Assembly (NCBI GenBank): GCA_050258555.1
Contig: JBLMZA010000094.1
Coordinates: forward strand, 19,563-83,562
DNA length: 64,000 bases
Origin: Acidobacteriota bacterium
Lineage (GTDB): Bacteria; Bacteroidota; Ignavibacteria; UBA10030; UBA8401
Direction: 5' to 3'
Made by a program: the position numbers and the translations under genes
The notes under the pieces: generated by a model
Databases searched by the model: none
What the model was told of the DNA's origin: nothing
The model's input: the letters and a program-made list of their open reading frames with translations, nothing else
Part shown: positions 3,708 to 51,263 of the stretch, piece after piece
How the letters are laid out: every line of letters begins with the position of its first letter
How positions within the stretch are numbered: the stretch's first letter is position 1

Positions 3708-3749
3708 GTCACATTCCCCCCTTCCTCACTCCTTGAATGCGTGCGCCGG

Positions 3750-8721: not shown

Positions 8722-10125
8722 ATGAAGGCAATATTTTCAAACGAAGGGAAGAATGCCGCTGTGAAGAAAGCTTTACTCATCATGTCTGCGATCGTGCTCG
8801 TTCTGGGCGCGGGTGTGTCCCGTTTGAGCGCGCAGGCCGCAAAGAAAATGGTCGTTGGGTATTACTATCCCGGTTCGACGCCGAGCTACACCTATACGGC
8901 GATCCGCTACGACTGCCTCACGCATATCGCGCACGCGTTCATTCTGGCCACATCCACCGGCGCGCTCGATATGTCGGGTTTCACGCTCTACCCGCAGCTC
9001 AATCAGCGGGCGCATGAAAAGGGCGTGAAAGTCGTGGTCTCTGTGGGCGGATGGGGCAATGACAAGCCGTTTGCCGCCATGGCCGCCGACACCGCCGCAA
9101 GACGGAAGTTCGTGCAGAATCTGAAGAATTTCTGCGTCACGAACAATTACGACGGCGCCGATATCGACTGGGAATATCCGACCACGGCCGACAAGGCAAA
9201 CTACACCGCATTGATCCATGAGCTGCGCGCGGCGTTCAATACCGTGACGCCGCGGCTTTCGCTCTCGGCGGCCATGTCGGCCTATCCCGGATCGGGATAC
9301 GACTTCGCGGCCATCACGGGCGACTTCGACTGGATCGGCATGATGACCTACGACTTCTACGGCACCTGGACGCCGAAAGCCGGACCGAACTCACCGCTCT
9401 ACGGCACGTATGCGACGACCGACCAGGGATGGATCGACAACTCGGCCACGAACTATCTCGGCAAGGGCGTGCCGGCGTCGAAGCTTCTGATCGGCACGGC
9501 TTTCTACGGATGGAACTTCAAGACGGGCGCGCTCTATGCGGCGCAAAGCGGAGCGACACAGTCGCAATACCGGCTCTTCATCGCCAATCTGGCCAACGGC
9601 TGGACGCGCACCTGGGATGCCGCAACGCGCACACCCTATATGCAGGATGCGGCCAGGACGCAGCTCATCACATACGACGATTCGGCGTCGATCGTTGAAA
9701 AGTGCGAGTATGTGAAGGCGAAGAATTTGGCCGGAACGATCGTCTGGGCGATCGGGCAGGACTACACGTATCCGCGCGCGCCGCTGCTGGAAACCATCGG
9801 CAGAAGCTTCTTCAATGTCACAGAGGTGGCATCCGGCCAGGAAGAGGAAACGCAGGCGCCGGGCCGGTTCGAACTCGAGCAGAATTATCCGAATCCCTTC
9901 AATCCATCGACGACGATCGTCTTCGCCCTCGGCGCAAAGCAGCATGTGAAGCTGGAAATCTTCTCCGTGCTCGGAGAGAAAGTCGCCGCGCTGGTCGATG
10001 GCGAGCTGGAAGCCGGCTCGCACTCGGTCGAATGGAACGCCTCGCGCCAGCCAAGCGGAGCCTATTTCTGCCGGCTCACGGCGGGCGGATCGATGGGCGT
10101 GAAAACGATGGTGCTTCAGAAATAA
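8722..10125 (+). CDS. GH18 family chitinase-like glycoside hydrolase with T9SS C-terminal sorting domain
   Basis: Signal peptide. Canonical GH18 catalytic motif DGADIDWEYP. The C-terminal FELEQNYPNPFNPSTTIVFAL...GAYFCRL...VKTMVLQK is a Por_Secre_tail-type CTD. Confidence 0.8.
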   Translation: MKAIFSNEGKNAAVKKALLIMSAIVLVLGAGVSRLSAQAAKKMVVGYYYPGSTPSYTYTAIRYDCLTHIAHAFILATSTGALDMSGFTLYPQLNQRAHEKGVKVVVSVGGWGNDKPFAAMAADTAARRKFVQNLKNFCVTNNYDGADIDWEYPTTADKANYTALIHELRAAFNTVTPRLSLSAAMSAYPGSGYDFAAITGDFDWIGMMTYDFYGTWTPKAGPNSPLYGTYATTDQGWIDNSATNYLGKGVPASKLLIGTAFYGWNFKTGALYAAQSGATQSQYRLFIANLANGWTRTWDAATRTPYMQDAARTQLITYDDSASIVEKCEYVKAKNLAGTIVWAIGQDYTYPRAPLLETIGRSFFNVTEVASGQEEETQAPGRFELEQNYPNPFNPSTTIVFALGAKQHVKLEIFSVLGEKVAALVDGELEAGSHSVEWNASRQPSGAYFCRLTAGGSMGVKTMVLQK

Positions 10126-12370: not shown

Positions 12371-12411
12371 CCTTGAAAGCGTGCATGCGAATAAAATTAT
12401 TGGAGACTTTT

Positions 12412-13422
12412 ATGAAACTCAGCATACGAACATGTTCTGCGGTCTTCCTGGCTTCGCTTCTGTGCGCAAGTGCGGGCGTATCGCAAATACAAAAAAAGGC
12501 GCAGGTCGGCTTCCGCTTCCTCGAAAATCCCACGGCCGCCGAAGCCGTGGGCCGGGGCGGCACCGGCATATTGACCACGATGAACTCGAACGCGCTCTTC
12601 TGGAATCCGGCTCTGACCGGCTGGCAAACGAGCGCGGTCGATCTGAGCCTGAATCACACGCGCTACATCGCCGACATCAACTACAGCGCGGGGGCGGCCA
12701 CATTCCGTCTCGGCTCATTCGGCGTCCTGGGCGCGAGCCTGCTCATGATGGATTACGGCACGTTCTACCAGACCTATGCCGTCGACAAGTCGGTCAATGA
12801 GCAGGGGTATGTGGAAACCGGCACATTCTCGCCGAAGTCGTACGCGCTCGGGCTCTCGTTTTCGCAGCAGGTGAGCGACCGCTTCAGCTACGGCGTACAA
12901 CTCAAGTACGTGGCCCAGGATCTGGGCGATGCCTGGGTGGCGCAGGATGTGAACATCGTCGAGCGCGGCTACAAGGCCAACGCCATGGCGCTCGATATCG
13001 GCGCCGTCTATGATTTCGCCTACAAGGGCATCAAGTTCGCCGCGACGATGCAGAACATCTCGAAGGAGATCCGCTATGAAAACGAATCCTTCCCGCTTCC
13101 CTTCGCCGTGAGCTTCGGCGCCTGCGTGCAGCCGCTGACGTTCATCGATGAATCGGATGCGATGAAGGCCTTGATGCTCACCGTCGAGAGCCGCCACCAG
13201 CGCGATTTCGGCGAGAAGCTCAAAGTCGGCGCCGAATACAAGGCGTACGAATTCTTTGCGCTGCGCGCCGGATACATGACGGGCTATGACGAGCGCGGAT
13301 TCACGGCCGGCCTCGGCATCACCTATCCGGTTTCGGGCGTGCCGCTCCGGGCCGACTACGCCTATGAGCCCTTCGGCGTTTTCGGCGGCGTGCATTATCT
13401 TTCGCTCGGCGTGAGCTATTAA
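12412..13422 (+). CDS. FadL/PorV-like outer-membrane beta-barrel protein
   Basis: Signal peptide. The N-terminal hatch-like segment ...AEAVGRGGTG...SNALFWNPALTGW carries the NPA motif typical of FadL/TodX/PorV-family barrels. The sequence has the alternating amphipathic pattern of beta strands and a C-terminal aromatic residue. It is a paralog of the protein at 45286..46236. The start was moved to the ATG at 12412. Confidence 0.5.
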   Translation: MKLSIRTCSAVFLASLLCASAGVSQIQKKAQVGFRFLENPTAAEAVGRGGTGILTTMNSNALFWNPALTGWQTSAVDLSLNHTRYIADINYSAGAATFRLGSFGVLGASLLMMDYGTFYQTYAVDKSVNEQGYVETGTFSPKSYALGLSFSQQVSDRFSYGVQLKYVAQDLGDAWVAQDVNIVERGYKANAMALDIGAVYDFAYKGIKFAATMQNISKEIRYENESFPLPFAVSFGACVQPLTFIDESDAMKALMLTVESRHQRDFGEKLKVGAEYKAYEFFALRAGYMTGYDERGFTAGLGITYPVSGVPLRADYAYEPFGVFGGVHYLSLGVSY

Positions 13423-13523: not shown

Positions 13524-14609
13524 ATGCGCCTACTTTTACGATCCATTCAAACGTATCCCCTGCGCTATCTGGCCCTTGTCGTTGCGGCGGCCTTCGCCCT
13601 GACGCTCTATCCCTTCAATTTTTTTCAGCGCAACCAGGTATCCTTTTCCGACGGCATGACATTCGCGCTTCCGGGCACGGCCTACACGCTCCATGCCCAC
13701 GAGGCGCTCTCGTTTCTCTATCAGTTCACCTTTTTTCTCCGTGTGACGCCGGCACTGGACGACGCCCCCCGCGTCATGCGCATCATGGGCTCGGGCCCGG
13801 ATTTCTACAATCAGAATTTCTCGATCGGACAGTACAGAAACCAGCTCGTCATCCAGTTCTTCAGCCGCGATTCGAAGCAGTTCAATGAAATCACCGTGCC
13901 CGAGGTGTTCCGGGAGAAGGAGCCCGTGTGGATCGCGCTCACATTCAACGGCACGACCGTGCGCTGCTATGTGGACGGAAGGAAGAAGGCCGAGCGCCGG
14001 ACCGGTCCCATGGCGCTCACGCAGTGGGATTCGACCTATCCGATCGTCTTCGGCACCGATCCGGCCGGGCTTCTGCAATGGGAAGGCACGGTGCATACGG
14101 CCGCGATTTACGACCGCGCCTTCAAGGCGTCGGAGGTGCGGAGGCCCGACTTGATTTTTAGAAAATATTCTTCTATCATCCACTATCACTTCGGCCGTCG
14201 CACAGGACAGTATGTGGCATCGCGGGGCACGGATCGTGATTCGGTGTTCGTGCCGGCGCTTTTCAAGCCCTACAACCGGAGCACACTGTTTGATCCATTT
14301 CGATTATTGGGGAGGCAGCGTTTGTATGTTCGCGATATCGTTGCCAATATTATTTTCTTCCTGCCTGTTGGATTATTTTCGGCATTGGCGCTCAGGCGCA
14401 GCATTACCAGGTTCGTCGTCGTCCTCCTGCTCTCGGCGGCAGCGGGCATGGCGTTGAGCATCAGCGTTGAGACGCTGCAGATATTTCTGTCAAGCCGTTT
14501 CTCGAGCATCGTCGATGTGCTGAGCAATACCGCCGGCACGGTCATCGGCGCGTGCATCACGCTTGTTCTTCCCCGGCGTGCGGGCTTCGGCGCTGAAGAA
14601 AAAAAATAA
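13524..14609 (+). CDS. membrane protein: N-terminal ConA-like/LamG lectin domain fused to C-terminal VanZ-like domain
   Basis: N-terminal transmembrane helix. The LamG-like signature is WIALTFNGTTVRCYVDGRKK...WEGTVHTAAIYDRAFKASEV. The C-terminus RDIVANIIFFLPVGLF...ETLQIFLSSRFSSIVDVLSNTAGTVIG matches the VanZ family. The start was moved to 13524 (MRLLL), downstream of the terminator T-run. Confidence 0.55.
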   Translation: MRLLLRSIQTYPLRYLALVVAAAFALTLYPFNFFQRNQVSFSDGMTFALPGTAYTLHAHEALSFLYQFTFFLRVTPALDDAPRVMRIMGSGPDFYNQNFSIGQYRNQLVIQFFSRDSKQFNEITVPEVFREKEPVWIALTFNGTTVRCYVDGRKKAERRTGPMALTQWDSTYPIVFGTDPAGLLQWEGTVHTAAIYDRAFKASEVRRPDLIFRKYSSIIHYHFGRRTGQYVASRGTDRDSVFVPALFKPYNRSTLFDPFRLLGRQRLYVRDIVANIIFFLPVGLFSALALRRSITRFVVVLLLSAAAGMALSISVETLQIFLSSRFSSIVDVLSNTAGTVIGACITLVLPRRAGFGAEEKK

Positions 14610-14721: not shown

Positions 14722-15741
14722 ATGATGACAAGCAGGGAAGTGCTGATGATCGATGCGGAACGCGAGATCGAACGGATCGCCCATACGATCAGAACAACCG
14801 TCCGCCAGAGTGTCCGGCGAAGAGGCGCCGTTGTCGGCGTCTCCGGAGGGATCGACAGCGCAGTCTGCGCGGCGCTCTGCGTGCGCGCCTTCGGCAGCGC
14901 CAATGTGCTGGCGCTGCTGATGCCGGAACGCGATTCGAGCGAGACCTCGAAACGGCTGGGCAGGGAGCTCGCCGAACGGTTTTCCATCCCGTGCATCGAG
15001 GAGGATATCACGCCCGTGCTCGAGGGCGCCGGATGCTACAGGCGCCAGCTTGAAGCGATCCGCAAAGTCTTTCCGGACTACGGCGAAGGATGGAAAAACA
15101 AAGTGGTGCTGCCGTCCATTCTGGACGGCGACCGGCTCAACGTGTCGCGCCTCACGGTGCAATCGCCCGACGGATCGTTCAGGACGGAGCGGCTGCCGAT
15201 GGATGAATATCTGCAGCTCATTGCCGCCACGAACTTCAAACAGCGCATCCGCGCGATGATGGAATACTATCATGCCGACCGGCTCAACTACGCCGTGTGC
15301 GGCACGCCCAACCGGCTTGAATACGACCAGGGTTTCTTCGTCAAAGGCGGCGACGGGCTCGCCGATTTCAAGCCGATTGCCCACCTCTATAAAACGCAAG
15401 TCTACCAGCTCGGCGCGGCGCTCGGCATTCCGGAGGGCATCCTGAAGCGCACACCCACCACCGACACGTATTCGCTTGAGCAGACGCAGGAGGAATTCTA
15501 CTTTGCGCTGCCCTATGAAAAGATGGATCTCTGCCTGTATTCCTATAACAACGACGTCGGTCCCGGCGAAGCGGCCGAAGCGCTCGGTCTTTCTTCCGAA
15601 CAGGTGCTGCGCGTCTACAGGGATATCGAAGCGAAGCGGCGCGCGACATTGGCGCTGCATCTTCCGGCTTTGACGATGGAGCCGGTCGAACCGATCACAT
15701 CCATGATCGAGGAGAGCAAGAAGGCGGTCTTCGCTTCCTGA
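14722..15741 (+). CDS. NadE-like PP-loop ATP pyrophosphatase (NAD synthetase family, putative amidating enzyme)
   Basis: The PP-loop motif VVGVSGGIDSAVCAAL (SGGxDS) is present and the overall layout is NadE-like. The start was moved to the ATG at 14722 (RBS AGGAAG), which removes the overlap with the upstream gene. Confidence 0.6.
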   Translation: MMTSREVLMIDAEREIERIAHTIRTTVRQSVRRRGAVVGVSGGIDSAVCAALCVRAFGSANVLALLMPERDSSETSKRLGRELAERFSIPCIEEDITPVLEGAGCYRRQLEAIRKVFPDYGEGWKNKVVLPSILDGDRLNVSRLTVQSPDGSFRTERLPMDEYLQLIAATNFKQRIRAMMEYYHADRLNYAVCGTPNRLEYDQGFFVKGGDGLADFKPIAHLYKTQVYQLGAALGIPEGILKRTPTTDTYSLEQTQEEFYFALPYEKMDLCLYSYNNDVGPGEAAEALGLSSEQVLRVYRDIEAKRRATLALHLPALTMEPVEPITSMIEESKKAVFAS

Positions 15742-15797
15742 GTTCCACGTTGATCCGATAGACAATCCATTCCAGACTATTTTTCATAAGGACCGGT

Positions 15798-16058
15798 ATG
15801 ATACAAGAACATGTGCGAGAACAGGTGCAGCAGTTCATACAGAAGAATTTCACGTTCGATGATACGCGCACGATCGACGGCTCGACGTCGCTTCTGGGCT
15901 CGGGCATCATCGATTCGACCGGCATTCTTGAACTCATCGGATTTCTGGAGACGACATACGGACTCAAATTCCAGGACAACGAGCTTGTGGGCGACAACTT
16001 CGATTCGATCGATCGGATCGTGCAGTTCCTTTCCACGAAAATGAACGGGACCCATTAA
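15798..16058 (+). CDS. acyl carrier protein / peptidyl carrier protein
   Basis: 86 aa. It carries the phosphopantetheine-attachment motif LGSGIIDSTGILELIGFLE, with the Ser in a DS context. Confidence 0.7.
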   Translation: MIQEHVREQVQQFIQKNFTFDDTRTIDGSTSLLGSGIIDSTGILELIGFLETTYGLKFQDNELVGDNFDSIDRIVQFLSTKMNGTH

Positions 16059-16173
16059 GGCGCGGGCCCGGCGGCGGCGTACAGAAGACGGATCACAAAG
16101 AAAAGAAACGAAGCGAAGGCGTACGGCAATCCAGCGGGCGGTGCATTCATTTTTTTTGGAAGGGATCTTGTCG

Positions 16174-17685
16174 ATGCTGATACATGAATACCTCTCACAA
16201 GCGGCCGAACGCATGCCGGAAAAAACGGCGCTGGTCTGCGGCAAGATGCGCGCCTCCTACCGCATGCTTCATGAGCGCGCGAAAAACTTCGCCGCATTCC
16301 TGCGCACGCAGGAGCTGGAAAAAGGCGACCGCGTGGCCGTCTATATCGATACGAGCATCGAAACGGTGACGGCGATCTTCGGCATTCTGGAAGCGGGAGG
16401 CTGCCTGGTGATCGTCAACCCCTCGACGCATTCCGAACGGCTCGGATTCATTCTCAACGACGCCGGAGCGAAGTTCGTCATTGCCTCGGTCGACAAGCTT
16501 GCCGTCGTCGAGCAGGCGGTCAAGCAGTGCCAGACATCGCCCGGGCTGATCCTGACCGGTCCGGTCGAAGACGACGACCGCTATATGAGCTTCGAGCAGG
16601 CCACCAATACGCTGCTTCCCTTCACGCCCGTCAAGGTGATCGACAACGATCTGGCGGCGATCATCTACACCTCCGGCTCGACAGGCAAGCCCAAGGGCGT
16701 CACGCATCTGCACCGCACGATCAACGTCGTGGTGGAAACCGTGGCCGACTACCTCTGCCACAGTGAAGAGGATGTGGTGCTCGGCGTGCTTCCGCTCTCA
16801 TCGAGCTACGGGCTCCTTCAGGTGCTCGTCACATTCTACACGTGCGGCAGGATCGTGCTCGAGCGCGGCTTCGGCTATCCGTATGAAATCATACAGCGCA
16901 TGAAGGAGGAAGGCGTCACCGGCTTTGCCGGCGCGCCGACGGTCTATGCGATCATCCTGAAGCTCGAGGGGCTCGAGCGCGAGGATTTTTCGCGCCTGCG
17001 CTACATCACCAATGCCGCGGCCGCGATGCCGGCGCCGTTCATTCCGCAATTGCGCAGGATCTTTCCTTCCACGAAGATCTACCTGATGCACGGGCTCACC
17101 GAATGCCTGCGCACGACATTCCTTCCGCCCGATGAAATCGACGCGAAGCCGACGTCCGTCGGGTGCGGCATGAAGAACGTCGAGTTGTGGCTCGAGGATC
17201 AGGCGGGCAACCGCGTGGCGAAGGGGCAGGTCGGCGAAATGATGGTGCGCGGATCGAACATCATGCAGGGCTACTGGAACGATCCCGAAGGCACATCCAG
17301 GGTCCTGAAGCCGGGCCGCTATCCATGGGAGAAGGTCTTGCGCACGCGCGATCTCTTCATCGAGGATGAGGAAGGGTACTTCCATTTCGTCTCGCGCGAG
17401 GATGAGCTCATCAAGAGCCGGGGCGAAAAAGTCTCTCCGGTCGAAGTCGAGGACGTGCTCTACCGGCTCGATGCGGTGCAGGAAACGCGCGTGATCGGCG
17501 TGCCCGACGGCGTGCTCGGGCAGGCAATCAGGGCCGAAATCGTGCTGAAGGAACATCACACGCTCACCGCCCAGGAAGTGAAGGCGCACTGCAGGAAGAA
17601 CATCGAGGATTTCAAGGTGCCGCACCACATCGAGTTCGTCCAGTCGCTGCCGAAGACGCAGGGAGGAAAGATCAAGCGCTCCTGA
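16174..17685 (+). CDS. AMP-dependent synthetase/ligase (acyl-CoA/acyl-ACP synthetase family)
   Basis: AMP-binding motif IIYTSGSTGKPKGV, plus the conserved YGLTE and ...GEK... C-terminal motifs. The start was moved to the ATG at 16174 (GGAAGGGA RBS). Confidence 0.8.
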   Translation: MLIHEYLSQAAERMPEKTALVCGKMRASYRMLHERAKNFAAFLRTQELEKGDRVAVYIDTSIETVTAIFGILEAGGCLVIVNPSTHSERLGFILNDAGAKFVIASVDKLAVVEQAVKQCQTSPGLILTGPVEDDDRYMSFEQATNTLLPFTPVKVIDNDLAAIIYTSGSTGKPKGVTHLHRTINVVVETVADYLCHSEEDVVLGVLPLSSSYGLLQVLVTFYTCGRIVLERGFGYPYEIIQRMKEEGVTGFAGAPTVYAIILKLEGLEREDFSRLRYITNAAAAMPAPFIPQLRRIFPSTKIYLMHGLTECLRTTFLPPDEIDAKPTSVGCGMKNVELWLEDQAGNRVAKGQVGEMMVRGSNIMQGYWNDPEGTSRVLKPGRYPWEKVLRTRDLFIEDEEGYFHFVSREDELIKSRGEKVSPVEVEDVLYRLDAVQETRVIGVPDGVLGQAIRAEIVLKEHHTLTAQEVKAHCRKNIEDFKVPHHIEFVQSLPKTQGGKIKRS

Positions 17686-17702: not shown

Positions 17703-18074
17703 TTATTGGTTCGGCGTCGGCTCGGCGATCGATGTGATGAGGTTGATGAGCGTCTTGATCTCGAACGGCTTTTCCAGAAACGCGTAGGCTCCTTTCTCCT
17801 TCGCTTCGGTGACGACGGCCGGCGCCGTGTAGCCGGAGATCATGATGACCTTCGCGCCCGCATTGATCTTGCGCACCTCACCGAGCACGTCCATGCCGCT
17901 GGTGGTGGGCAGTCCGAGATCGAGAATGACGACATCGGGACGATGCTCCTTGTAGAGTTCGATGCTCCGGGGGCCGTCGGCGGTAATGAAAAGTTCGTGT
18001 CCCGCATGATGGAGTACATTGCTCAATGCGTTGAGCACGAGTTCGTCGTCGTCGATGATCAATATCTTTGCCAT
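17703..18074 (-). CDS. single-domain CheY-like response regulator receiver
   Basis: 123 aa. The sequence KILIIDDDELV...DVVILDLGLP...KVIMISGY...KPF contains the conserved Asp and Lys positions of receiver domains. Confidence 0.75.
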   Translation of the reverse strand: MAKILIIDDDELVLNALSNVLHHAGHELFITADGPRSIELYKEHRPDVVILDLGLPTTSGMDVLGEVRKINAGAKVIMISGYTAPAVVTEAKEKGAYAFLEKPFEIKTLINLITSIAEPTPNQ

Positions 18075-18141: not shown

Positions 18142-19374
18142 TCAGCGTTCCTCCATTTCGCGCGCGGTGCGCACCCATTCTCCCGAGCGTTCCTGGCGCG
18201 CCAGTTTCAGATACAGCTTCGCCTTCCACCAGACATACTGCGGAATCGTCGAAAGCGTGCGCGCCAGCGACGGATCTTCCGAGACCTTCACGCCTCCGCT
18301 CACATGCAGGATGCCCGAAAGCATCGCCGCACTCCAGGCAATCGTCCACCACAGCAGGCTCTGACTTCCGCCTGAGGCCCAGGCAAGAAGCGACAGGAGG
18401 GCGAGCGTGATCGATCCGGCCATCATCGTGACGAATGCCGGCATCACAAGGTCGATGAATGCGTCGCCGAGCACCCAGGAGCGCCGAAGAAGCGCCGCAG
18501 AAAGCAGCACACGGGCGTAGCGGCGGATCACCGGCAGGCGTCCGCCTTCCCAGCGCGCGCGCTGGCTTTCGGCGTTCGACGCCTCTTCCGGCATGACGGC
18601 AAGCGCGCATGCGCCGGGCACAAACACCGGCGCGTATCCCGCAAGAAGCATCTGCAAGCCGTATTCGAGATCCTCGGCCTTTGAAAACGCGCGCCACGGC
18701 ACATGTTCCATCGCCTGGCGTGTGAAGCACATGCCGTTTCCCTTCAACCCGGCGGAGAGTCCCATGGCTTTGCGCCCGAGCGGCCGCACATAATTATGGA
18801 GCACGAAGCTCAGGCGCAATGCCTCGGCTGTCCAGGATCCGGTGCGCGAGGGAGCCGCAAGGTCGCTCGTTTGCATCACGTGTGCGCCGCTTTCTATTGC
18901 AACATTGAGCATGGCCAGATAGTTGCCCGAAACAATCGTATCGGCATCGATCACGATGAGCGCGTCGAAATCCGCGGCAGAGGAGGCGCCAAGCAGACGC
19001 TCGAATGCCCAGCGCAGCGCGTGGCCCTTGCCCCGCTGCGCCGCGTCCGTGCGCTCCATGACGCGCGCGCCTTCCTCGCGTGCAAGCGCTGCGGTCGCAT
19101 CGGTGCAGTTATCGGCGATGACGACGCGCTCAAAAAGATGCCGGGGATAGTCGACCGATGCGAGGCTGCGAAGCGTCGTCCTGATCGATGAGGCTTCATT
19201 ATGCGCCGGCACAAGAAAGAGAAATTTCCTCAGACACCGTGTCTCCGGTTCGGCGGCCGCATTGCGGCTGCGACGTTTCTGAAACAGCGCGGCACCGGTG
19301 AGAAATGCCAGATACAGAAGCGGCATTCCGAAGAGGAGGAAGAAGATACCTTGGAATGTATGAACGATGAACAT
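18142..19374 (-). CDS. membrane-bound family 2 glycosyltransferase
   Basis: N-terminal transmembrane helix. GT2 motifs FLVPAHNEASSI, DADTIV and the RARWEGG region (QxxRW-like) are present. The start was moved to the ATG at 19374. Confidence 0.65.
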   Translation of the reverse strand: MFIVHTFQGIFFLLFGMPLLYLAFLTGAALFQKRRSRNAAAEPETRCLRKFLFLVPAHNEASSIRTTLRSLASVDYPRHLFERVVIADNCTDATAALAREEGARVMERTDAAQRGKGHALRWAFERLLGASSAADFDALIVIDADTIVSGNYLAMLNVAIESGAHVMQTSDLAAPSRTGSWTAEALRLSFVLHNYVRPLGRKAMGLSAGLKGNGMCFTRQAMEHVPWRAFSKAEDLEYGLQMLLAGYAPVFVPGACALAVMPEEASNAESQRARWEGGRLPVIRRYARVLLSAALLRRSWVLGDAFIDLVMPAFVTMMAGSITLALLSLLAWASGGSQSLLWWTIAWSAAMLSGILHVSGGVKVSEDPSLARTLSTIPQYVWWKAKLYLKLARQERSGEWVRTAREMEER

Positions 19375-19387
19375 GCGTCTCTCGTGC

Positions 19388-21076
19388 TTAATCGTGAGAA
19401 ATCTGTTGCCTGGTACTGTCATGCAATGCGAACGCCTGATCGGGGAGCGCGCGGACATAGAGCACAAAGTCCCCGACATGTTCCTTTGCCCGGTAATCGC
19501 GCATTTCCTCCTGGATGAAGCCCGAATGCAGAAAGTAGTCGTGCATCCGGAAGCCTTCGGGCATGGCCGAGCAGTGTTCGCCGTCGTGTATGAAGACGAG
19601 CGCCGGCTTCATCGTTTCGATGTCGGATCCGAGTTCGGAAAGAAACCGCCGCTCCTCATCGGGCATCGCTCGGCGGTCCCGATAGGGAAACGTGCCCGTC
19701 TCGGCGCTGCCGTAATAAAAGCCGGCCAGCGGAAAGCTCGTCAGGTAGCGGCTTGCCGAGCGCCGCCCGGTCTGTATGAGCGTGGGATAGGCCGGAAAGA
19801 GGACCGTGTTGATGAACAGCACGCGGTCTTCTTGCGCGGAATATGAGCGGATCGCCTGCCGGTACATGCGGAAGGATTCATACGTGACATAGGAGCGGTC
19901 GGCGATGAATGCGCGCACGGTCAGCGTGAAGAGTCCCAGAAGAATGAGAATCGATGCCGAGACGGCCCAAAGCTTCCGCGCGCGCACCTGTTCGCGCCGG
20001 TGCATGATTTCCTCATACAGCCAGAGCGCGGCAAAGAGCGAGAGCATGACAAACGAGATTTTGGCCGGAAGCGCATGATAGGAATATCCCTTCTGCTGCA
20101 TCCAATAGGAAAGGAACGACCCGATAAAGAGTCCCGTGAGCATCTCCAGGCGGAGCGAGGAGATGCCGCGCCGCCGAACGATGACGAAGGCGAGCACCGC
20201 GCCGAATACGAGCGAGACACTGCCGGCGATGACCGCGGGCTGCGTGAACATGTAATGGAAGAGATTCAGGTTGATCGTTCCGTAGTAATGCATGAAAAAC
20301 GGCATCCACCGCCCGAAAAGTTCCGCATGCACACGCTCGGGAAGAAACAGGAAATGCAGCGCATAGGACAGAGTGAACGCGCATGCGCTCAGCATTTCAG
20401 GCGCGACGAGCACGCGAGCGCGCCGTGTGCGCACCAGGGCGATCGCTTCGGGAATCAGAACGAGAAGGAAGAAGTACGGCTTCAGGCTGAGTCCGATGCC
20501 GGTCATGATGCCGATCACCATGGACGGCGCGGGCCGGACCCGGTCCCCGTAATAGCGGATCACGCGCACGATCACGAACGGAAAGACCATGATGATCACC
20601 AGATAATCGCGCTGCCCGAAATCGCCCGTCGCATAGACGAACAGCGAAGAGACGATCCATCCCGCAAGCAGCGCGGCGCGCGCCGCGGGCTTCAGGTTCA
20701 ATTCGCGCATGCGAAAAAGTGAAAACAGAAGAACGCTCGAGACAAGCAGCTGTCCGGCCACAAAGAGCGAAAAGGCCTGGGGCAGCAGGAGCCCGGTCGC
20801 CTTCGACACATAGACGGGCGCCATATTCATATAGAAGATCAGGGGCGGATTGATGTCGATGAAGTCGACATAGGGCAATCCGCCTTCGGTCAGAATCCGG
20901 GCGCACTCCAGCACATAGGCGCAGTCGTGGTTGATCTGCAAAGGCGAGCGCAGGATCATCCAGGCCAGCGGCAGAAAAAGCGCAAAGGGAAGGGCGTCGA
21001 TCCATGCATGCGGGACCGGCCCGGCCGTGTGGGGCGCCTTGATCGGCGCGCCGTATTCAGAGCCCGTGCGCATCAT
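19388..21076 (-). CDS. GT-C fold membrane glycosyltransferase (ArnT/PMT-like, polyprenyl-phosphate-sugar dependent)
   Basis: About 12 transmembrane segments and a large C-terminal soluble domain. The layout is typical of GT83/GT39 enzymes. The start overlaps the stop of the upstream polyprenyl-phosphate GT2 gene by 4 nt. Confidence 0.55.
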   Translation of the reverse strand: MMRTGSEYGAPIKAPHTAGPVPHAWIDALPFALFLPLAWMILRSPLQINHDCAYVLECARILTEGGLPYVDFIDINPPLIFYMNMAPVYVSKATGLLLPQAFSLFVAGQLLVSSVLLFSLFRMRELNLKPAARAALLAGWIVSSLFVYATGDFGQRDYLVIIMVFPFVIVRVIRYYGDRVRPAPSMVIGIMTGIGLSLKPYFFLLVLIPEAIALVRTRRARVLVAPEMLSACAFTLSYALHFLFLPERVHAELFGRWMPFFMHYYGTINLNLFHYMFTQPAVIAGSVSLVFGAVLAFVIVRRRGISSLRLEMLTGLFIGSFLSYWMQQKGYSYHALPAKISFVMLSLFAALWLYEEIMHRREQVRARKLWAVSASILILLGLFTLTVRAFIADRSYVTYESFRMYRQAIRSYSAQEDRVLFINTVLFPAYPTLIQTGRRSASRYLTSFPLAGFYYGSAETGTFPYRDRRAMPDEERRFLSELGSDIETMKPALVFIHDGEHCSAMPEGFRMHDYFLHSGFIQEEMRDYRAKEHVGDFVLYVRALPDQAFALHDSTRQQISHD

Positions 21077-22056
21077 AATGAATGGACCCTGCAGGAGGAA
21101 ACATCATAGACGGCACCGGTGTCGTCGTCATCGAAGCCGAGGGTCTGCTTCACAAGAAAGATCGGGCGCTTTCTCACCTCATCCAGGACGCGCCAGAGAT
21201 ATTCGCCGATGATGCCGATGCCGATGAGCTGGGCCCCGGAGGCGATCAGGACGACGACCATGAGCGAAGACCAGCCCTCGATCGCCACGCCGTGCACCAG
21301 GCGCAGTCCGATGATAAAGAGCGCGTAGAGAAGGCCGAACGCCGCAATGGTGAAGCCCATGCTGCTGACCACGCGCAGCGGAAAATACGAGAACGCCGTG
21401 AAGGAATCGATGAAGAGCTTGATCTTCTTGGCCACTGACCAGCGGGAGCGGCCCGCGGCCCGCGCCCGGCGCTCATAGGCGATGAGCTTGCGCTCATAGC
21501 CCGTCCAGAGCACCTGGATGATGAGATGGGAATTCTTTTCCTCCATCTTGAGAATCGCGTCGATCACTTTCCGGTCGATGAGCCCGTAGTCGCACCCGCC
21601 TTCGGGAATATTCTTCACGCCGAAGCGCCGCATGAGCCGGTAGAAGAGCGAAGCGAGCACTTTCGTCGCCCAGGGATCCTTGCGCGAGGAGCGCACGGCG
21701 AGCACGGCCGGGAAGCCTTCTTTCCATCCCCGGTAGAGTTCGTGGATGAGCGAGGGCGGATCCTGCAGATCGGCGCTGATGATGACGGCGCAGTCTCCCG
21801 TGGCATACGAAAGCCCGGCGAAGACGGCGATGCCCGAGCCGTGGTTTTTCGAGAGCTGCACGAGCTTCACTCGGCTGTCCTTCTTGGCGAAGCCCGCAAT
21901 GATCTCCGCCGAGTGATCGCCCGAGCCGTCATCGACGAAGATGAATTCGGCGTCTGCCGTATCGAGTATCCGCATCACATGGCGGAATTCCTCGTACAAG
22001 GCCGGCAGCGTCGGGGCATTGTAATAGACCGGAACAATGATCGAGAGTTTATCCAC
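21073..22056 (-). CDS. polyprenyl-phosphate glycosyltransferase (GT2; ArnC/DPM1/GtrB-like)
   Basis: Motifs LSIIVPVYYNAPTLP, FVDDGSGD and DADLQDPP, plus two C-terminal transmembrane helices as in ArnC/GtrB. The start was taken as the GTG at 22056 with an AAGGAG RBS 7-8 nt upstream; the track ORF extends to 22452. Confidence 0.65.
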   Translation of the reverse strand: MDKLSIIVPVYYNAPTLPALYEEFRHVMRILDTADAEFIFVDDGSGDHSAEIIAGFAKKDSRVKLVQLSKNHGSGIAVFAGLSYATGDCAVIISADLQDPPSLIHELYRGWKEGFPAVLAVRSSRKDPWATKVLASLFYRLMRRFGVKNIPEGGCDYGLIDRKVIDAILKMEEKNSHLIIQVLWTGYERKLIAYERRARAAGRSRWSVAKKIKLFIDSFTAFSYFPLRVVSSMGFTIAAFGLLYALFIIGLRLVHGVAIEGWSSLMVVVLIASGAQLIGIGIIGEYLWRVLDEVRKRPIFLVKQTLGFDDDDTGAVYDVSSCRVHSL

Positions 22057-22112
22057 AGCGGCACCTGCTCCTTTTCGTTCGCACTCTGCGTGTATTGTGT
22101 GTCGGCAACGGT

Positions 22113-23084
22113 TCAGTTGAGCACCTTCCGGAAGACGAACTCCGTCTTTCCCAGATGAAATCCCAAATGTTCGCACACCTTGATGATGCGGATGTTGGTG
22201 GCCTGCGTCGAGAAGAAGAGATGCTCGGCGCCTGCCTCCGCAAAATGATAAATGAGTTCCGAAAGCATCTTGACGGCCCATCCCTGAAGGGCGCCCGAAC
22301 TGGCGCCGAGCACCAATTGACTGATGGGACGCTCCCACGTCTGCCAGTCCTTTTTGAGATACCGCCCGGTGGCGACGGCCGTCGGCGCTCCGGGAAGATC
22401 GGGCACCATGACGATATCCGAGAACTCCTTCGAGAGCGAGACGCGTATCCACTGTTCCATAAGCCGGTCGGCATCCTCTCTGGAAATGAACGGATCGGCA
22501 TGGAAGCGGTCATAGATGTTGACCGTATCGCGCACCACCCCGGTGATCGAGGGAAGATCCTCGGGCCGGGCTTCGCGCGTCGGATAGCGCTTGATGTATT
22601 CAAAGTCGCAGATGGCGCGGTGGTAATACAAGCGCGGCTCGATCAGGCAGAAGCCGGCTTCGCCGAGCGCGCGCATGAGCGAGAGATCCCTCGGATCGAC
22701 CTGGGCAAACATGTAGCGGATGCCGTGCTCGCGCGCCTTCTGTTGCACGGCGCTGACGGCCGCGGCCAGCTCGGCGAAGGGACGGTATCCCGGCTGGGCC
22801 AGCGGATAAATGCCGTGGAGCCTGGCGATGCCGTAGCCGAAGAAGGCGCTGTCCCACGGGAGCTTCTCGGCCATGACGGCCAGCGGGCCTTCCTTCGGAT
22901 CTTCGAGAATGAAGCGCAGATCGTCCGCCTCGTCGATCACACGGCAGAGCGTATCGAGGAGGAGCTTTTTATCGCCCTCGGACGAGATGCCGCGGATGTA
23001 ATCGAGCGGCGACCAGGGCAGCGTCGATGCCAGGGCCTGCCGCACGTCCTCGTTCACTGCCGTAAAGTCTCTGATGCATTCCAT
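22113..23084 (-). CDS. WecD-like two-domain GNAT N-acyltransferase (nucleotide-amino-sugar acetyltransferase family)
   Basis: The segment KLPWDSAFFGYGIARL resembles the WecD/RffC N-terminus (..LTWENAFFG..). The C-terminus has a GNAT fold (Q/R..G.G motif). The start is the ATG at 23084 with an AAGGAGA RBS. Confidence 0.55.
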   Translation of the reverse strand: MECIRDFTAVNEDVRQALASTLPWSPLDYIRGISSEGDKKLLLDTLCRVIDEADDLRFILEDPKEGPLAVMAEKLPWDSAFFGYGIARLHGIYPLAQPGYRPFAELAAAVSAVQQKAREHGIRYMFAQVDPRDLSLMRALGEAGFCLIEPRLYYHRAICDFEYIKRYPTREARPEDLPSITGVVRDTVNIYDRFHADPFISREDADRLMEQWIRVSLSKEFSDIVMVPDLPGAPTAVATGRYLKKDWQTWERPISQLVLGASSGALQGWAVKMLSELIYHFAEAGAEHLFFSTQATNIRIIKVCEHLGFHLGKTEFVFRKVLN

Positions 23085-23122: not shown

Positions 23123-23911
23123 TCACTGCCAATAATATTCCGGGCGCCGGTCTGCAAAGAGATGGTTGCGCTCGGTCACGAATTTGTTGTCCGCCGCCTC
23201 CGGAATGATCTCGCACACGGCCGCTTCAACGGCGTCCGAAGACGAGCGGTGCAGGACGTCTCCGCGCGGAGAGGTGATCTGGCTCCGGCCGATGAATGTG
23301 AGCGGTCCGCCGGCCCGGTCCTCGGTGCCGATGCGGTTGGCCGTGGCGGCAAAGACGCGGTTTTCAAGCGAGCGCACGGGCATGGCCATCGGACAGTGGG
23401 GAAGCACGAGATTCGACGGATGGGCGATCACCTGCGCGCCCTTGAGCGCGAGCGTTCTGGCGCTTTCGGGAAAATACCAGTCGAAGCAGATCATCATGCC
23501 GATCCTGCCGCAGGGCGTTGCTTCGACGCGAAAGCCGAGATTGCCCGGCGTGAAGCATTCCTTCTCCCGGTCGAAGAGGTGTGTCTTTCTGTAGAGCGAT
23601 GCGAAACCGTCGTAGCCGATCAGGGCCGCGGAGTTATACAGCGTGCCGTTGTCGTCTTCGGCGAAGCCGAAGGCGATGAAGCAGTGCGCCTCCCGGGCGA
23701 AGTCGAAGAGCCTGGAGAATGTGGGGCCGGTCCGGAAGGCCTCCGAAAGCGATCGGGCCTCTTCGGCTGTTTCGAAATTATATCCGGAGGCGAAGAGCTC
23801 CGGCAGCACATAAAGATCGGCCGGCGCCTGGCGCATGAGCTCGAGGGCCTGGATGCAGTTGGCGTCCTTTTCCCCGAAGACGGGATCGGTTTGTATGGTG
23901 GCAAGTTTCAT
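23123..23911 (-). CDS. carbon-nitrogen hydrolase (nitrilase superfamily)
   Basis: The Glu-Lys-Cys catalytic triad context is present (YVLPELF, YRKTHLF, MMICFDWYFPE). The start was moved to the ATG at 23911, giving a 4-nt overlap with the upstream LmbE gene. Confidence 0.7.
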   Translation of the reverse strand: MKLATIQTDPVFGEKDANCIQALELMRQAPADLYVLPELFASGYNFETAEEARSLSEAFRTGPTFSRLFDFAREAHCFIAFGFAEDDNGTLYNSAALIGYDGFASLYRKTHLFDREKECFTPGNLGFRVEATPCGRIGMMICFDWYFPESARTLALKGAQVIAHPSNLVLPHCPMAMPVRSLENRVFAATANRIGTEDRAGGPLTFIGRSQITSPRGDVLHRSSSDAVEAAVCEIIPEAADNKFVTERNHLFADRRPEYYWQ

Positions 23912-24566: not shown

Positions 24567-25781
24567 TTATCGTTTCGGTGATGAAAAGACATCGTCGAAC
24601 TGTTCAACGACCTCAGTATAATAGCGCTTGAATATTCCGGTGTCAAGCCTCCACGCGCACGAAGCACGCTCGGCTTCGAGACGCTCGAATGCGCATTCGA
24701 GCGCCTCGGGCGTGATCGTTCTGATTTCCATGACGTGTCTGCCTTGTCCGGCGCGCTCCATCAGATCGTCGATCTTGGGATGATAGGAGAGCGCCACAAC
24801 CGGCTTTCCCTTCAGAAGCGAAAAAAGGACCGCATGAAAGCGCGAAGCGACCACAAGATCGAGCGAGGCGATATGTTCCATCAGCTCGTCGGGTGAAGCG
24901 GCGCTCAGCGTCGTCGGCATGGCCCCGCCCGCTGAATGCGCCGCCATGATCGCGCGGATATCGTCATCCAGGCGTTCATCGCCCAGCTGGCTGTGGAAGA
25001 AGACGACCTCGATCTTCTTCCGGCACAGAAAGAGACAGAACTCCGCCATGATGCGGATATACGCTTCGTAGCTCATCGTCCGGGCGTCGAAGCGCGTCGA
25101 CCATTCGTGGCGCGGCAGGGGATTGATGCCGACTCTCCGCAGGCGGCTCTTTGCGGCGCCGGCATGCAGCCCGGAAGCCGAGGGCAGAAGAGCGAATGCC
25201 ATGTCGGGGCACAGGCGTGATGCTTTCCGCATGCCGATTTTCTTCATCCACGCAAGCGACGCTTCGTCCCTGAACGAGCGATAGGAGGCGCGCGAGAGCG
25301 AGAAGCGGAAGAACCATTTTCCGAGTTCGGTCACGAAGGGGCCCGCCCCGACGCTCAGATACATCATGCGCGTGCCGGTCAGGGCGCAGAGCGCCGCCCA
25401 GCGGAAATGCGTGAAGGGATAGGTCCAGGGCCCGTGCTCTTTGTCGTAGATGCCGCCCGAGCCGGCCACCACCAGAAGCGTGATCGAGCGAAGGGCGCGG
25501 TAGGACTTCCAGAGAAAGGCGATTTCCGCGGGCGCGGCTTCGAGCGCTTTGCGGAATCGCGAGCGGCCGGATTTCGACGAGCCCGTGCGGCGGATCGGGA
25601 TCGCTTCGATGCCGTGGCGCTTCATTGTCTCGTCGGGATTGAGCGAAATGCCGAGAAGCTTCGCTTCGGGCATGCGGCGACGGATCTCGCGAGCCAGGAG
25701 CGAGACGACCGCTTCATCGCCCAGATTGCCTGCGCCGTAATACCCGAAGAGCGCGATTGTCTGTGGAAGAGCCTGCTTCAT
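24567..25781 (-). CDS. polysaccharide pyruvyl transferase (CsaB/WcaK family)
   Basis: N-terminal GYYGAGNLGDEA signature and a C-terminal glycosyltransferase-B-like fold (VVASRFHAVLFS). Confidence 0.65.
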   Translation of the reverse strand: MKQALPQTIALFGYYGAGNLGDEAVVSLLAREIRRRMPEAKLLGISLNPDETMKRHGIEAIPIRRTGSSKSGRSRFRKALEAAPAEIAFLWKSYRALRSITLLVVAGSGGIYDKEHGPWTYPFTHFRWAALCALTGTRMMYLSVGAGPFVTELGKWFFRFSLSRASYRSFRDEASLAWMKKIGMRKASRLCPDMAFALLPSASGLHAGAAKSRLRRVGINPLPRHEWSTRFDARTMSYEAYIRIMAEFCLFLCRKKIEVVFFHSQLGDERLDDDIRAIMAAHSAGGAMPTTLSAASPDELMEHIASLDLVVASRFHAVLFSLLKGKPVVALSYHPKIDDLMERAGQGRHVMEIRTITPEALECAFERLEAERASCAWRLDTGIFKRYYTEVVEQFDDVFSSPKR

Positions 25782-51241: not shown

Positions 51242-51263
51242 TCATGTTCAGAAAGGATATGCC

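Follow-up and report, generated by a model that had tools for sequence, protein, structure and literature searches.

The closest described system to the locus analysed here is an operon on the pSymB megaplasmid of Sinorhizobium meliloti, the organism in which this type of cassette was first noticed; described in 2009, it comprises asnB (smb20652), an acyl carrier protein (ACP) gene (SMb20651), a ligase gene (SMb20650) and nadE1 (smb20649) (Ramos-Vega et al. 2009, Microbiology 155:257; Pech-Canul et al. 2020, PMC7232532). SMb20651 is converted to holo-ACP with AcpS and becomes acylated when SMb20650 is co-expressed (PMC7232532). The ligase gene smb20650 does not complement fadD. The acyl groups found on SMb20651 are reportedly C12:0 and C18:0. 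A strain without pSymB, and therefore without asnB, is not an asparagine auxotroph. S. meliloti, Sorangium and Anaeromyxobacter each also have a fused glutamine-dependent NadE (PMC3376133, Table S3). Likewise, Azospirillum brasilense possesses two other NadEs in addition to its plasmid cassette. A literature search on NadE-like enzymes with carrier proteins found none.

The window, by which we mean the whole 64-kb stretch of DNA that was analysed, contains three adjacent plus-strand genes for a NadE-family PP-loop enzyme, a carrier protein and an AMP-forming ligase (Table 1). They lie at the coordinates and on the strand that the initial annotation had given for this trio, and independent gene calls on four Logan contigs reproduce the boundaries of all three open reading frames (ORFs). 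Judged by sequence comparison, the cassette and the S. meliloti pSymB operon are orthologous, so that the statement that no characterized precedent exists for this combination has to be given up: one has been known since 2009. The NadE-like protein is 56-58% identical to its S. meliloti and S. medicae counterparts over more than 320 residues (54-61% across rhizobial plasmid NadE proteins), the ligase is 42% identical to SMb20650-type ligases, and the ACP, which shares the serine motif IIDSTG, is 36-39% identical to SMb20651 of S. meliloti and S. medicae and 36-47% identical to the ACPs that this operon encodes in Sinorhizobium and Mesorhizobium. In both systems the ACP and ligase genes are adjacent and co-directional. 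Unlike the S. meliloti operon, the window cassette has no AsnB-like gene, runs in the order nadE-ACP-ligase, has a LamG-VanZ gene directly upstream and abuts a Wzx/Wzy polysaccharide locus and genes for type IX secretion (T9SS) cargo; its host, moreover, is Bacteroidota/Ignavibacteria-like and not alphaproteobacterial.

Table 1. The cassette and its nearest neighbours, with positions in the window
Feature	Position	Strand	Evidence
LamG + VanZ membrane protein, 361 aa	13524..14609	+	Pfam VanZ 1.4e-14, Laminin_G_3 1.3e-12; hydropathy TM segments
NadE-family PP-loop enzyme, 339 aa, PRK00876/NF002048 subfamily, NadE1 (smb20649) orthologue	14722..15741	+	Pfam, NCBIfam, AF2 fold
Stand-alone acidic carrier protein, 86 aa, predicted phosphopantetheine Ser in IIDSTG, SMb20651 orthologue	15798..16058	+	Weak NCBIfam ACP matches, identity
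AMP-forming (ANL) ligase, 503 aa, predicted loader of the carrier protein, SMb20650 orthologue	16174..17685	+	Pfam, NCBIfam, identity
Single-domain response regulator, convergent with the cassette	17703..18074	-	Pfam Response_reg 2.4e-25
GT2 glycosyltransferase (EpsU-like), last gene of the polysaccharide locus	18142..19479	-	Glyco_tranf_2_3 3.6e-27; EpsU 267 bits, cut-off 700

The carrier protein (pI 4.4) has no Pfam match, and its NCBIfam ACP matches are weak, the best being to the OlsHI ACP of ornithine-lipid synthesis (1.7e-10). The ligase carries the Pfam domains AMP-binding (5.8e-79) and AMP-binding_C, and its best NCBIfam match is TIGR03098. Its PDB neighbours do not point to a substrate, as LgrA owes its apparent top rank (263 bits) to the addition of two A domains, and single-domain scores (LgrA 161, oxalate-CoA ligase 187 and VinN 186 bits) do not discriminate. 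The only firm point about the substrate, as read from the protein sequence, is that the alpha-amino-binding Asp of nonribosomal peptide synthetases (NRPS) is missing, with a Ser at its position. That the ligase and carrier are something other than an ordinary fatty-acid activation pair, a possibility the initial annotation had raised against itself, is supported by the inability of SMb20650 to replace FadD.

Three other systems invite comparison. The XrtA/PEP-CTERM set likewise combines a ligase, a stand-alone ACP and an AsnB-type amidotransferase beside polysaccharide genes; TIGR03098 is the model of its acyl-CoA ligase, and TIGR03108, that of its amidotransferase, is the second match of the AsnB-like partner in related loci. 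The scores nevertheless fall under the cut-offs (ligase 432 against 592 bits, AsnB-like proteins 387-443 against 817), no exosortase was found among the approximately 45 window ORFs scanned with Pfam, and to our knowledge the exosortase-associated set has not been described as including a NadE-like protein. In the DltA/DltC system, a stand-alone ANL ligase similarly loads a small dedicated carrier for an envelope polymer, with a membrane protein encoded alongside. However, the window ACP scores 18 bits against DltC, whose cut-off is 68, no MBOAT protein (DltB) was found among the window ORFs scanned, nor DltD, the ligase is without the alpha-amino-binding Asp, and Dlt has no PP-loop enzyme. 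CtaC, the closthioamide thioamide synthetase, is a PP-loop (adenine nucleotide alpha-hydrolase) ATP-pyrophosphatase that modifies an acyl chain on a stand-alone carrier protein. It is an example of a PP-loop enzyme in partnership with a carrier protein, but it belongs to a different PP-loop family and performs other chemistry, namely thioamidation.

The three genes keep company well beyond the window. Most of 80 related loci, which span about ten phyla, have them side by side, a grouping far beyond chance. Of these relatives, 53 have flanks of 5 kb or more in both directions and come from Myxococcota, Acidobacteriota, Planctomycetota, Actinomycetota, Nitrospirota, Bacteroidota/Ignavibacteria, Pseudomonadota and others; an AsnB-like gene is present in 51 of the 53, the ligase in 49, the ACP in 43 and all three in 41. 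The ACP family gathered by jackhmmer is present in 72 of 91 loci, a total that includes duplicates of the window. Relatives of the cassette occur in at least 355 species-level genomes, and a word-index search, which takes in more distant NadE relatives, returned at least 8000 NadE-family homologues. Given the frequency of the AsnB-like gene, the idea that a NadE-like enzyme stands in for the asparagine-synthase type of amidotransferase cannot be maintained, as the two co-occur nearly everywhere and only the small clade of the window is without AsnB. No match to an AsnB-like protein was obtained by tblastn at E < 0.01 anywhere in the 64 kb, and the gene is also absent from the closest relatives (L005/L085, L006 and L007), in all of which a LamG-VanZ gene lies directly 5' of the NadE-like gene. 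The window and these relatives are a derived variant, without AsnB and with LamG-VanZ upstream.

Domain fusions point in the same direction as co-location, and together they bear out the proposal that the three genes form a functional unit. The ligase is fused to the NadE-like protein in P0124 (on L097), the NadE-like protein to an AcpS-type phosphopantetheinyl transferase (PPTase) in P0123 (on L096), and the NadE-like domain to AMP-binding_C and PP-binding domains in P0128, which is found on two independent contigs beside an Sfp-type PPTase. The first two, each seen on a single contig, may be sequencing-error read-throughs of adjacent genes. Seven other long candidates (P0133, P0209, P0237, P0238, P0185, P0155 and P0267) resemble read-throughs caused by frameshifts, containing Arg-rich junk, and so were left out of the fusion evidence.

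The surroundings of the cassette in the window match what had been described from the sequence. Upstream on the plus strand are a GH18 protein with a Por_Secre_tail domain, another protein whose CHU_C match is weak and below threshold, and a member of the PorV/PorQ family; on the minus strand a full Wzx/Wzy polysaccharide locus extends from 17.7 to 44.9 kb, convergent with the cassette, and includes a CN_hydrolase gene (23123-23911) and a pyruvyl transferase gene (24567-25781) at the positions previously assigned to them. The LamG-VanZ protein has an N-terminal transmembrane segment, an extracytoplasmic concanavalin-like domain and C-terminal VanZ transmembrane helices, and VanZ genes adjoin the cassette in four further loci (L009, L012, L090 and L091). 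The response regulator keeps its position in L085/L086 and L007, and L089 has a response-regulator fusion close to its cassette; this gene recurs as a neighbour and is at most a candidate member of the system. A counterpart of the GT2 glycosyltransferase follows the cassette in L085/L086 and L089, making it a recurrent neighbour in the phylum, and in L085 and L089 the cassette has GT2, response-regulator and DUF418 genes next to it. In an acidobacterial locus the adjoining genes encode an LMW-PTP, FemAB-like transferases and a GT2 enzyme. Wzx flippases and hexapeptide acyltransferases recur in cassette flanks; the latter are heterogeneous (CysE/EpsC-like and WbbJ/WcaF-like) and therefore are not one conserved partner. 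Neither a second nadE nor a PPTase was detected among the roughly 45 window ORFs scanned with Pfam. At the nucleotide level, the sole match to an RNA element 5' of the cassette was a sub-threshold miRNA, to be ascribed to chance and not to a riboswitch, and promoter and terminator scans at the cassette were uninformative.

The most likely role of the cassette is an ATP-dependent activation or amidation of a carboxylate linked to the carrier protein. The whole explanation, which we consider somewhat probable, is that the cassette is an accessory biosynthetic unit outside NAD metabolism, in which an acyl group is loaded on the carrier, activated or amidated by the NadE-like enzyme and delivered to the envelope. 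The ligase would adenylate a carboxylic acid and load it as a thioester on the carrier phosphopantetheine, as shown for the S. meliloti orthologues. The NadE-like enzyme may then adenylate, at the expense of ATP, a carboxylate that belongs to the carrier-bound intermediate or is due to be added to it. A nitrogen nucleophile would displace the adenylate: ammonia, as it does in NadE, or perhaps a carrier-held amine or thiol. The outcome would be either an amide or a new acyl linkage. A second amidation would be contributed in most lineages by a glutamine-dependent AsnB-like amidotransferase, whose gene the clade of the window has lost. Finally, and most tentatively, the product might pass to the cell envelope as an acyl or amide substituent on a glycan or lipid, a destination suggested because LamG-VanZ is conserved upstream and the cassette is repeatedly accompanied by polysaccharide genes.

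Not every such cassette has this envelope context. The Sinorhizobium operon lies among unrelated genes, the cassette of L087 follows argS, and the operons of Mesorhizobium and Azospirillum, like that of Sinorhizobium, are outside polysaccharide loci. The cassette might instead make a diffusible or membrane small molecule (an N-acyl amide, an amino lipid or a short amide natural product), with its adjacency to polysaccharide genes incidental, and the acylation of SMb20651 in E. coli (PMC7232532), the weak preference of the ACP for the ornithine-lipid model and the L098 variant, which resembles a small thiotemplate pathway with its GDSL lipase, two alpha/beta hydrolases and Sfp PPTase, are all consistent with this. 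We regard it as unlikely, in that cassettes of several phyla are repeatedly found next to VanZ, GT2, Wzx, FemAB-like and sugar O-acyltransferase genes, and no lipid or metabolite phenotype has been reported.

That the PP-loop protein is in truth an NH3-dependent NAD+ synthetase, perhaps a paralogue adding to the NAD supply under conditions of cassette expression, and no more than an operon neighbour of the other genes, is distinctly unlikely, yet family assignment and fold give this explanation its footing. The protein has the Pfam domain NAD_synthase (4.5e-50) with the motif VSGGIDS, passes the broad TIGR00552 nadE domain model (158 bits against a cut-off of 64) and is annotated by PGAP as NAD(+) synthase; De Ingeniis et al. 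(PMC3376133) included such genes among the type-N NAD synthetases. Its AF2 model (pLDDT 88.5) has the NadE fold, the best Foldseek matches being 2E18, 1XNG and 3FIU (E down to 6e-18), with target-normalised TM scores of 0.82-0.87 to small archaeal and epsilon-proteobacterial NadEs. Fold, SGGxDS PP-loop and ATP/Mg/PPi ligands are shared with the NadEs of B. subtilis (1NSY/1KQP), P. horikoshii (2E18) and H. pylori (1XNG), as is, with NH3-dependent NadE, the lack of a glutaminase domain. When residues were mapped across 38 family members including the window protein (B. subtilis NadE numbering), the ligands S46, D50, S51, R139, T157, E162, K186, P207 and T208 were invariant or nearly so. Also conserved are N133, R137, Y144, F167, F168, K170, D173 and K258, which we take to line the NaAD site in the B. 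subtilis structures; with so many of these residues invariant, real NAD synthase activity may persist. A literature search for published roles of NaAD-site residues yielded nothing usable.

Against these stand features that set the protein apart. The initial annotation had proposed asking whether the NaAD-binding residues are retained, and although most are, Thr169 is Val in all members, Tyr171, the aromatic after Lys170, is replaced by Gly, Gln or Asn, and Tyr32 and His257 vary. Near the substrate site lies a conserved insert, a beta-hairpin of about 60 residues (104-160 of the window protein), and identity to solved NadEs is about 25%, as against 60-70% between phyla within the family, a very strong conservation. 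Apart from TIGR00552, the only listed NadE NCBIfam model passed is that of its own subfamily, NF002048/PRK00876 (508 bits, cut-off 313); those missed, mostly equivalog-level, include PRK13980 (173 of 255), PRK00768 (86 of 250) and PRK13981 (86 of 479). A clean score gap between the subfamily and canonical NadE was not obtained, scores declining continuously in a library of 50%-identity representatives, partly owing to fragments. Further, linkage to and fusion with genes for carrier-protein enzymes persist across about ten phyla. In S. meliloti, Tn-seq shows the chromosomal nadE (smc00161) to be essential although nadE1 is present, so that the orthologue does not replace it; this could reflect absent nadE1 expression in culture, and not absent activity. 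With its own subfamily, its distance from solved NadEs and an orthologue that provides no backup, the protein is not a typical housekeeping NadE, as had been supposed. That the PRK00876/NadE1 subfamily is no NAD synthetase at all but a carrier-protein-dependent adenylating enzyme, with an activity new to the NadE fold, is plausible while falling a little short of probable: it would either amidate a carboxylate of an acyl group tethered to the ACP or join an adenylated acid to a carrier amine or thiol. The architecture NAD_synthase + AMP-binding_C + PP-binding suggests the coupling option, because in P0128-type proteins the PP-loop domain takes the place of the A-domain core.

Very improbable, lastly, is a split glutamine-dependent NAD synthetase in which the nitrilase at 23123-23911, which the initial annotation had considered as the glutaminase partner, gives ammonia to the NadE-like protein as in the two-subunit enzyme of Thermus thermophilus: such systems exist (PMC3376133) and a CN_hydrolase gene occupies a matching relative position in the window and L085, but the protein is closer to nitrilase NF040852 (293 bits) and AguB (130) than to the fused-NadE model PRK13981 (53), its gene lies 7.4 kb away on the opposite strand between PIG-L and GNAT genes of the polysaccharide operon, and no CN_hydrolase was found within 10 kb of the cassette in L006, in the gene calls of the other loci inspected or among the 25 commonest flank families in a Pfam census of 142 flank ORFs.

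Genome pipelines name the product of the PP-loop gene NAD(+) synthase and that of the AsnB-like gene asparagine synthase, and metabolic models therefore treat both as isozymes, a prediction contradicted by the S. meliloti Tn-seq data. If the subfamily is no NAD synthetase, the name NAD(+) synthase is wrong for thousands of genes in at least ten phyla, and these would point to a hitherto unrecognised pathway that decorates envelope glycans or lipids with amide-bearing acyl groups, of which the window would be a minimal, AsnB-less version coupled to VanZ. The real activity of the enzyme, once shown, would correct a systematic mis-annotation and could add a reaction type to the NadE fold. The variant in the window, with no AsnB-like gene, VanZ attached and a polysaccharide locus beside it, offers a simpler system and a hint at the destination of the product.

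Checks of open reading frames, Pfam and NCBIfam bore out, in every particular, the three cassette genes described in the initial annotation, and their boundaries are identical in independent gene calls (four short public contigs with an identical locus). Against the NCBIfam subfamily NF002048 (PRK00876, "NAD(+) synthase") the NadE-like protein scores 508 bits with a cut-off of 313, and it exceeds the cut-off of the broad TIGR00552 domain model; none of the remaining NadE models among the NCBIfam matches listed, most of them equivalog-level, reaches its cut-off (PRK13980, 173 of 255 bits; PRK00768, 86 of 250; PRK13981, 86 of 479).

Features of the window and of related loci (window coordinates unless a locus is named)
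Feature	Position	Strand	Remarks
GH18 protein	8722-10125	+	T9SS sorting tail; upstream of cassette, same strand
734-aa protein		+	upstream of cassette; weak, sub-threshold CHU_C (T9SS C-terminal) match
PorV/PorQ-family outer-membrane protein	12373-13422	+	upstream of cassette
LamG + VanZ membrane protein	13524-14609	+	361 aa; upstream of cassette
NadE-like PP-loop protein	14722-15741	+	339 aa; VSGGIDS; Pfam NAD_synthase 4.5e-50
Carrier protein	15798-16058	+	86 aa; acidic, pI 4.4; IIDSTG; no Pfam match, weak NCBIfam ACP matches
ANL ligase	16174-17685	+	503 aa; best NCBIfam match TIGR03098 (exosortase-A-associated ligase), 432 bits, below the 592 cut-off
Wzz/GNVR, Wzy-like protein, WecG/TagA, Wzx flippase	within 17703-44958	-	polysaccharide locus
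Polysaccharide deacetylase, several GT4 enzymes, GT2	within 17703-44958	-	polysaccharide locus
Cytidylyltransferase, CDP-glucose 4,6-dehydratase, DRL-type oxidoreductase, class-III aminotransferase (PRK06209-type, 716 bits)		-	polysaccharide locus, CDP-sugar branch
Pyruvyl transferase	within 17703-44958	-	polysaccharide locus
PIG-L deacetylase, WecD-like GNAT	within 17703-44958	-	polysaccharide locus
Response regulator	within 17703-44958	-	polysaccharide locus
EpsU-like GT2	18142-19479	-
Multi-pass membrane protein	19388-21076	-	562 aa; no Pfam or NCBIfam match
ArnC/PgfS-like polyprenyl-phosphate GT2	21073-22452	-
CN_hydrolase	23123-23911	-	between PIG-L and WecD-like GNAT
Sigma-54 activator AAA+ protein	46276-47070	+	264 aa
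GH18 (chitinase-like) protein	49304-51241	+
GH18 (chitinase-like) protein	51222-53579	+
Por_Secre_tail protein	53374-54615		413 aa
Sigma-54 activator AAA+ protein	54654-55712	-
Embedded HemK/PrmC-like methyltransferase	L025 10679-11362; L030 12547-13374; L032 6241-7197; L048 15578-16390		related loci

The family to which the cassette belongs is broad. Screening GTDB with a single genome per species yielded 355 relatives of the NadE-like protein; partner genes were sought with tblastn and with a jackhmmer profile of the ACP in the best 80 of these 355 loci and in later loci, and counted in the 53 that extend 5 kb or more to each side of the NadE-like gene. An AsnB-like glutamine amidotransferase of 645-680 aa (GATase_7 and Asn_synthase domains, an N-terminal MCG, 518 bits to TIGR01536) adjoins the NadE-like gene in 51 of them; the ligase is present in 49, a small ACP in 43, and all three partners together in 41. 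These loci are spread over Myxococcota, Acidobacteriota, Planctomycetota, Actinomycetota, Nitrospirota, Bacteroidota/Ignavibacteria, Verrucomicrobiota, Desulfobacterota, Pseudomonadota and candidate phyla, and between phyla the NadE-like protein retains an unusually high 60-70% identity; across 38 sequences, 91 alignment columns are invariant. Given that the NadE-like and AsnB-like genes normally co-occur, the suggestion that a NadE-like enzyme here stands instead of one of the asparagine-synthase type does not describe the family. The only full-flank loci without the AsnB-like gene are L005 (assembly GCA_035298825.1) and L006, which with L007 are the window's closest relatives (79-84% identity), and tblastn finds no such gene anywhere in the 64-kb window, which is a member of a small, derived clade from which AsnB has been lost. 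Throughout this clade a LamG-VanZ gene lies directly upstream of the cassette; the T9SS-cargo genes farther upstream are not conserved, and in L085, the contig of the window's closest relative, the neighbour is on the opposite strand. L085 also encodes (2239-4761) a replicative helicase DnaB of 840 aa interrupted by an intein that includes a LAGLIDADG homing endonuclease, and the L006 orthologue, at 471 aa, is without intein.

Nor does the statement that no characterized precedent exists hold. By tblastn against PLSDB the NadE-like gene is found, at 54-61% identity, on 116 plasmids of Sinorhizobium, Ensifer, Mesorhizobium, Shinella and Azospirillum. The operon order is asnB - acyl carrier protein - AMP-binding protein - nadE on an annotated S. 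medicae megaplasmid and nadE - asnB - AMP-binding - ACP - SAM methyltransferase on a Mesorhizobium plasmid, and asnB, ACP, ligase and nadE are consecutive on pSymB of S. meliloti 2011. Window and Sinorhizobium proteins are 56-58% (NadE), 42% (ligase) and 36-39% (ACP) identical, and the counterpart there is the orthologous operon asnB-SMb20651-SMb20650-nadE1 studied by Ramos-Vega et al. (2009, Microbiology 155:257). As that study is related in PMC7232532, smb20650 and the ACP gene smb20651 are co-transcribed, AcpS converts SMb20651 to its holo form, and acylated SMb20651 appears in E. coli upon co-expression of SMb20650. In neither S. meliloti nor E. coli does smb20650 complement fadD, as it rescued neither growth on oleate, free-fatty-acid accumulation nor survival (PMC7232532, 2020); consequently, it is not a long-chain acyl-CoA synthetase. 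A 2017 paper lists the function of SMb20651 as still unresolved.

One alternative is that the NadE-like protein is what its annotation says, a NAD synthetase. The AlphaFold model (pLDDT 88.5) has the NadE fold and superposes on the small NH3-dependent NadEs 2E18, 1XNG and 3FIU with TM-scores of 0.82-0.87 on target length at ~25% identity. When the family is aligned to B. subtilis NadE (sequence identical to PDB 1EE1), every ATP, Mg and PPi ligand is invariant, as are N133, R137, Y144, F167, F168, K170, D173 and K258 (B. subtilis numbering), which line the NaAD site in the B. subtilis structures. However, Thr169 is replaced by Val in 38 of 38 family sequences, the aromatic residue after Lys170 has become Gly, Gln or Asn, neither Tyr32 nor His257 is kept, and a conserved insert of ~60 residues (window residues ~104-160), carrying invariant K125, K127, R138 and R157, is predicted to form a beta-hairpin subdomain next to the substrate site. 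Further, cassette-bearing organisms have canonical NadE enzymes as well: single-domain and fused glutamine-dependent NadEs are both listed for S. meliloti 1021, Sorangium cellulosum So ce56 and Anaeromyxobacter (De Ingeniis et al., PMC3376133 Table S3), and A. brasilense has two glutamine-dependent NadEs (PMC7196632) besides its plasmid-borne cassette. The most telling counter-evidence comes from the S. meliloti Tn-seq study of diCenzo et al. (PMC5929573), in which the chromosomal nadE (smc00161) is essential despite nadE1, although a metabolic model had called it dispensable because smb20649 (nadE1) was treated as its isozyme. Likewise, a strain without pSymB, and therefore without the asnB gene smb20652, is not an asparagine auxotroph (PMC5929573 supplement). 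Taken together, the essential chromosomal gene and the prototrophic strain mean that "NAD synthase" and "asparagine synthase" misdescribe what these genes contribute in culture; another possible reading of the same genetics is that the cassette genes are simply unexpressed under those conditions.

Domain fusions, found when 1.84 billion cluster representatives were searched exhaustively with HMMER, and confirmed by Pfam and on contigs, bear on what the enzyme may do instead. P0128 (510 aa, 47% identical), a reproducible fusion present in two independent assemblies (L098 and L099), joins NAD_synthase to AMP-binding_C and PP-binding, the PP-loop domain occupying the usual place of the adenylation-domain core directly before the A-domain C-terminal subdomain and the thiolation domain. 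In both assemblies (L098 6207-12594) an AMP-binding + PP-binding (A-PCP) protein comes before it, and a GDSL lipase, two alpha/beta hydrolases and an Sfp-type PPTase come after, a small thiotemplate-like cluster resembling the exosortase-A set of ligase, ACP, hydrolase 1 and hydrolase 2; the NadE-like domain of P0128 is divergent. P0124 (849 aa, L097) unites AMP-binding, AMP-binding_C and NAD_synthase downstream of an AsnB-like gene and an 85-aa ACP, and P0123 (479 aa, L096) unites NAD_synthase with ACPS, an AcpS-type phosphopantetheinyl transferase, downstream of a ligase; each is known from a single contig and may reflect a read-through error between adjacent genes, and even so both document gene adjacency. 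Given these fusions and the conservation of the operon, a carrier-protein-linked role is the best-supported reading of the NadE-like enzyme. Separately, a called gene on the single contig L100 (2775-4172), in which a NadE-like domain reduced to its C-terminal two thirds is joined to a GT2 and downstream of which lies a hexapeptide transferase, could be a true fusion or a read-through.

In such a carrier-linked pathway, the ligase would load its dedicated ACP, as shown for the S. meliloti orthologues, where the ligase is not FadD; the acyl groups found in E. coli were reportedly C12:0 and C18:0. The window ligase has the A3 and A10 motifs and a Ser at the position of the alpha-amino-binding Asp of NRPS A domains, and is therefore of the acyl, aryl or dicarboxylate type and not a classical activator of amino acids. 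The carrier protein has the conserved serine (Ser39, within IIDSTG), and the adenylation site of the NadE-like enzyme is intact. That enzyme would adenylate a carboxylate on, or destined for, an ACP-bound intermediate, and the adenylate would then be attacked by a nitrogen nucleophile: ammonia, or an amine or thiol tethered to the carrier. An amide product is hinted at by the AsnB-type glutamine-dependent amidotransferase as the usual partner and by the HemK/PrmC-like methyltransferase within some cassettes, which may N-methylate a carboxamide. The HemK/PrmC family methylates glutamine's amide nitrogen. In cassettes of Polyangiaceae and Sandaracinaceae such an N5-glutamine methyltransferase is embedded between ligase and ACP, its place being taken in Bacteroidota-type cassettes by a ~205-aa DOT1-like methyltransferase (L012, L089, L090, L091). 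The CN_hydrolase gene that had been put forward as glutaminase partner does exist, although no evidence was found for that role: against the nitrilase model NF040852 the protein reaches 293 bits, against AguB 130 and against the fused-NadE model only 53. The gene is kept at the corresponding place in L085, but within 10 kb of the L006 cassette there is none, and neither the gene calls looked at in other loci nor the most frequent families of the flanks include one. The cassette is not a split glutamine-dependent NadE, nor is it a Dlt system.

The weakest step of the proposal is the destination of the product, which may be the cell envelope. Consistent with this are the LamG-VanZ gene of the window's clade and the VanZ genes adjoining the cassette in L009, L012, L090 and L091; the group of response regulator, EpsU-like GT2 and DUF418 that comes after it in L085/L086 and L089; an acidobacterial locus in which the genes after the cassette encode an LMW tyrosine phosphatase, a GT2 and two FemAB-like transferases; and a census of 142 flanking ORFs from 34 diverse loci, with hexapeptide acyltransferases in 8 loci and also SAM methyltransferases, sigma-54 activators, Wzx flippases and VanZ. 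Against an envelope target, the cassette neighbours in Sinorhizobium and L087 are unrelated housekeeping or transport genes.

Within the window, a complete polysaccharide locus of the Wzx/Wzy type, running on the minus strand from ~44.9 kb to 17.7 kb, converges on the ligase from downstream. Its 562-aa membrane protein, placed between the EpsU-like and ArnC/PgfS-like GT2 genes and kept in L085 as a 547-aa counterpart, may be a GT-C-type transferase or polymerase that has gone unrecognised and uses the lipid-linked sugar. Farther along, the second and third of three GH18 proteins are followed by a separate Por_Secre_tail protein, and this second GH18 group is flanked by two sigma-54 activators, in the shorter of which an HTH_8 DNA-binding domain was not seen. 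In five acidobacterial loci (L016, L035, L038, L053, L082) the cassette likewise has sigma-54 activators next to it.

Set beside known systems, the window has three of the four defining parts of the S. meliloti operon type, the AsnB-like gene being missing, and its genes are not members of the exosortase-A ligase and amidotransferase families, since their scores fall below cut-off and no exosortase is seen among the ORFs scanned. What is new in the window is an AsnB-less, VanZ-coupled version that adjoins a polysaccharide locus and occurs in a bacterium with a T9SS. More interesting than the window is the family: a very widespread and highly conserved NadE paralogue, annotated everywhere as NAD(+) synthase, for which a function other than NAD synthesis, exercised with a carrier protein, is the reading best supported by genomic, fusion and genetic evidence.
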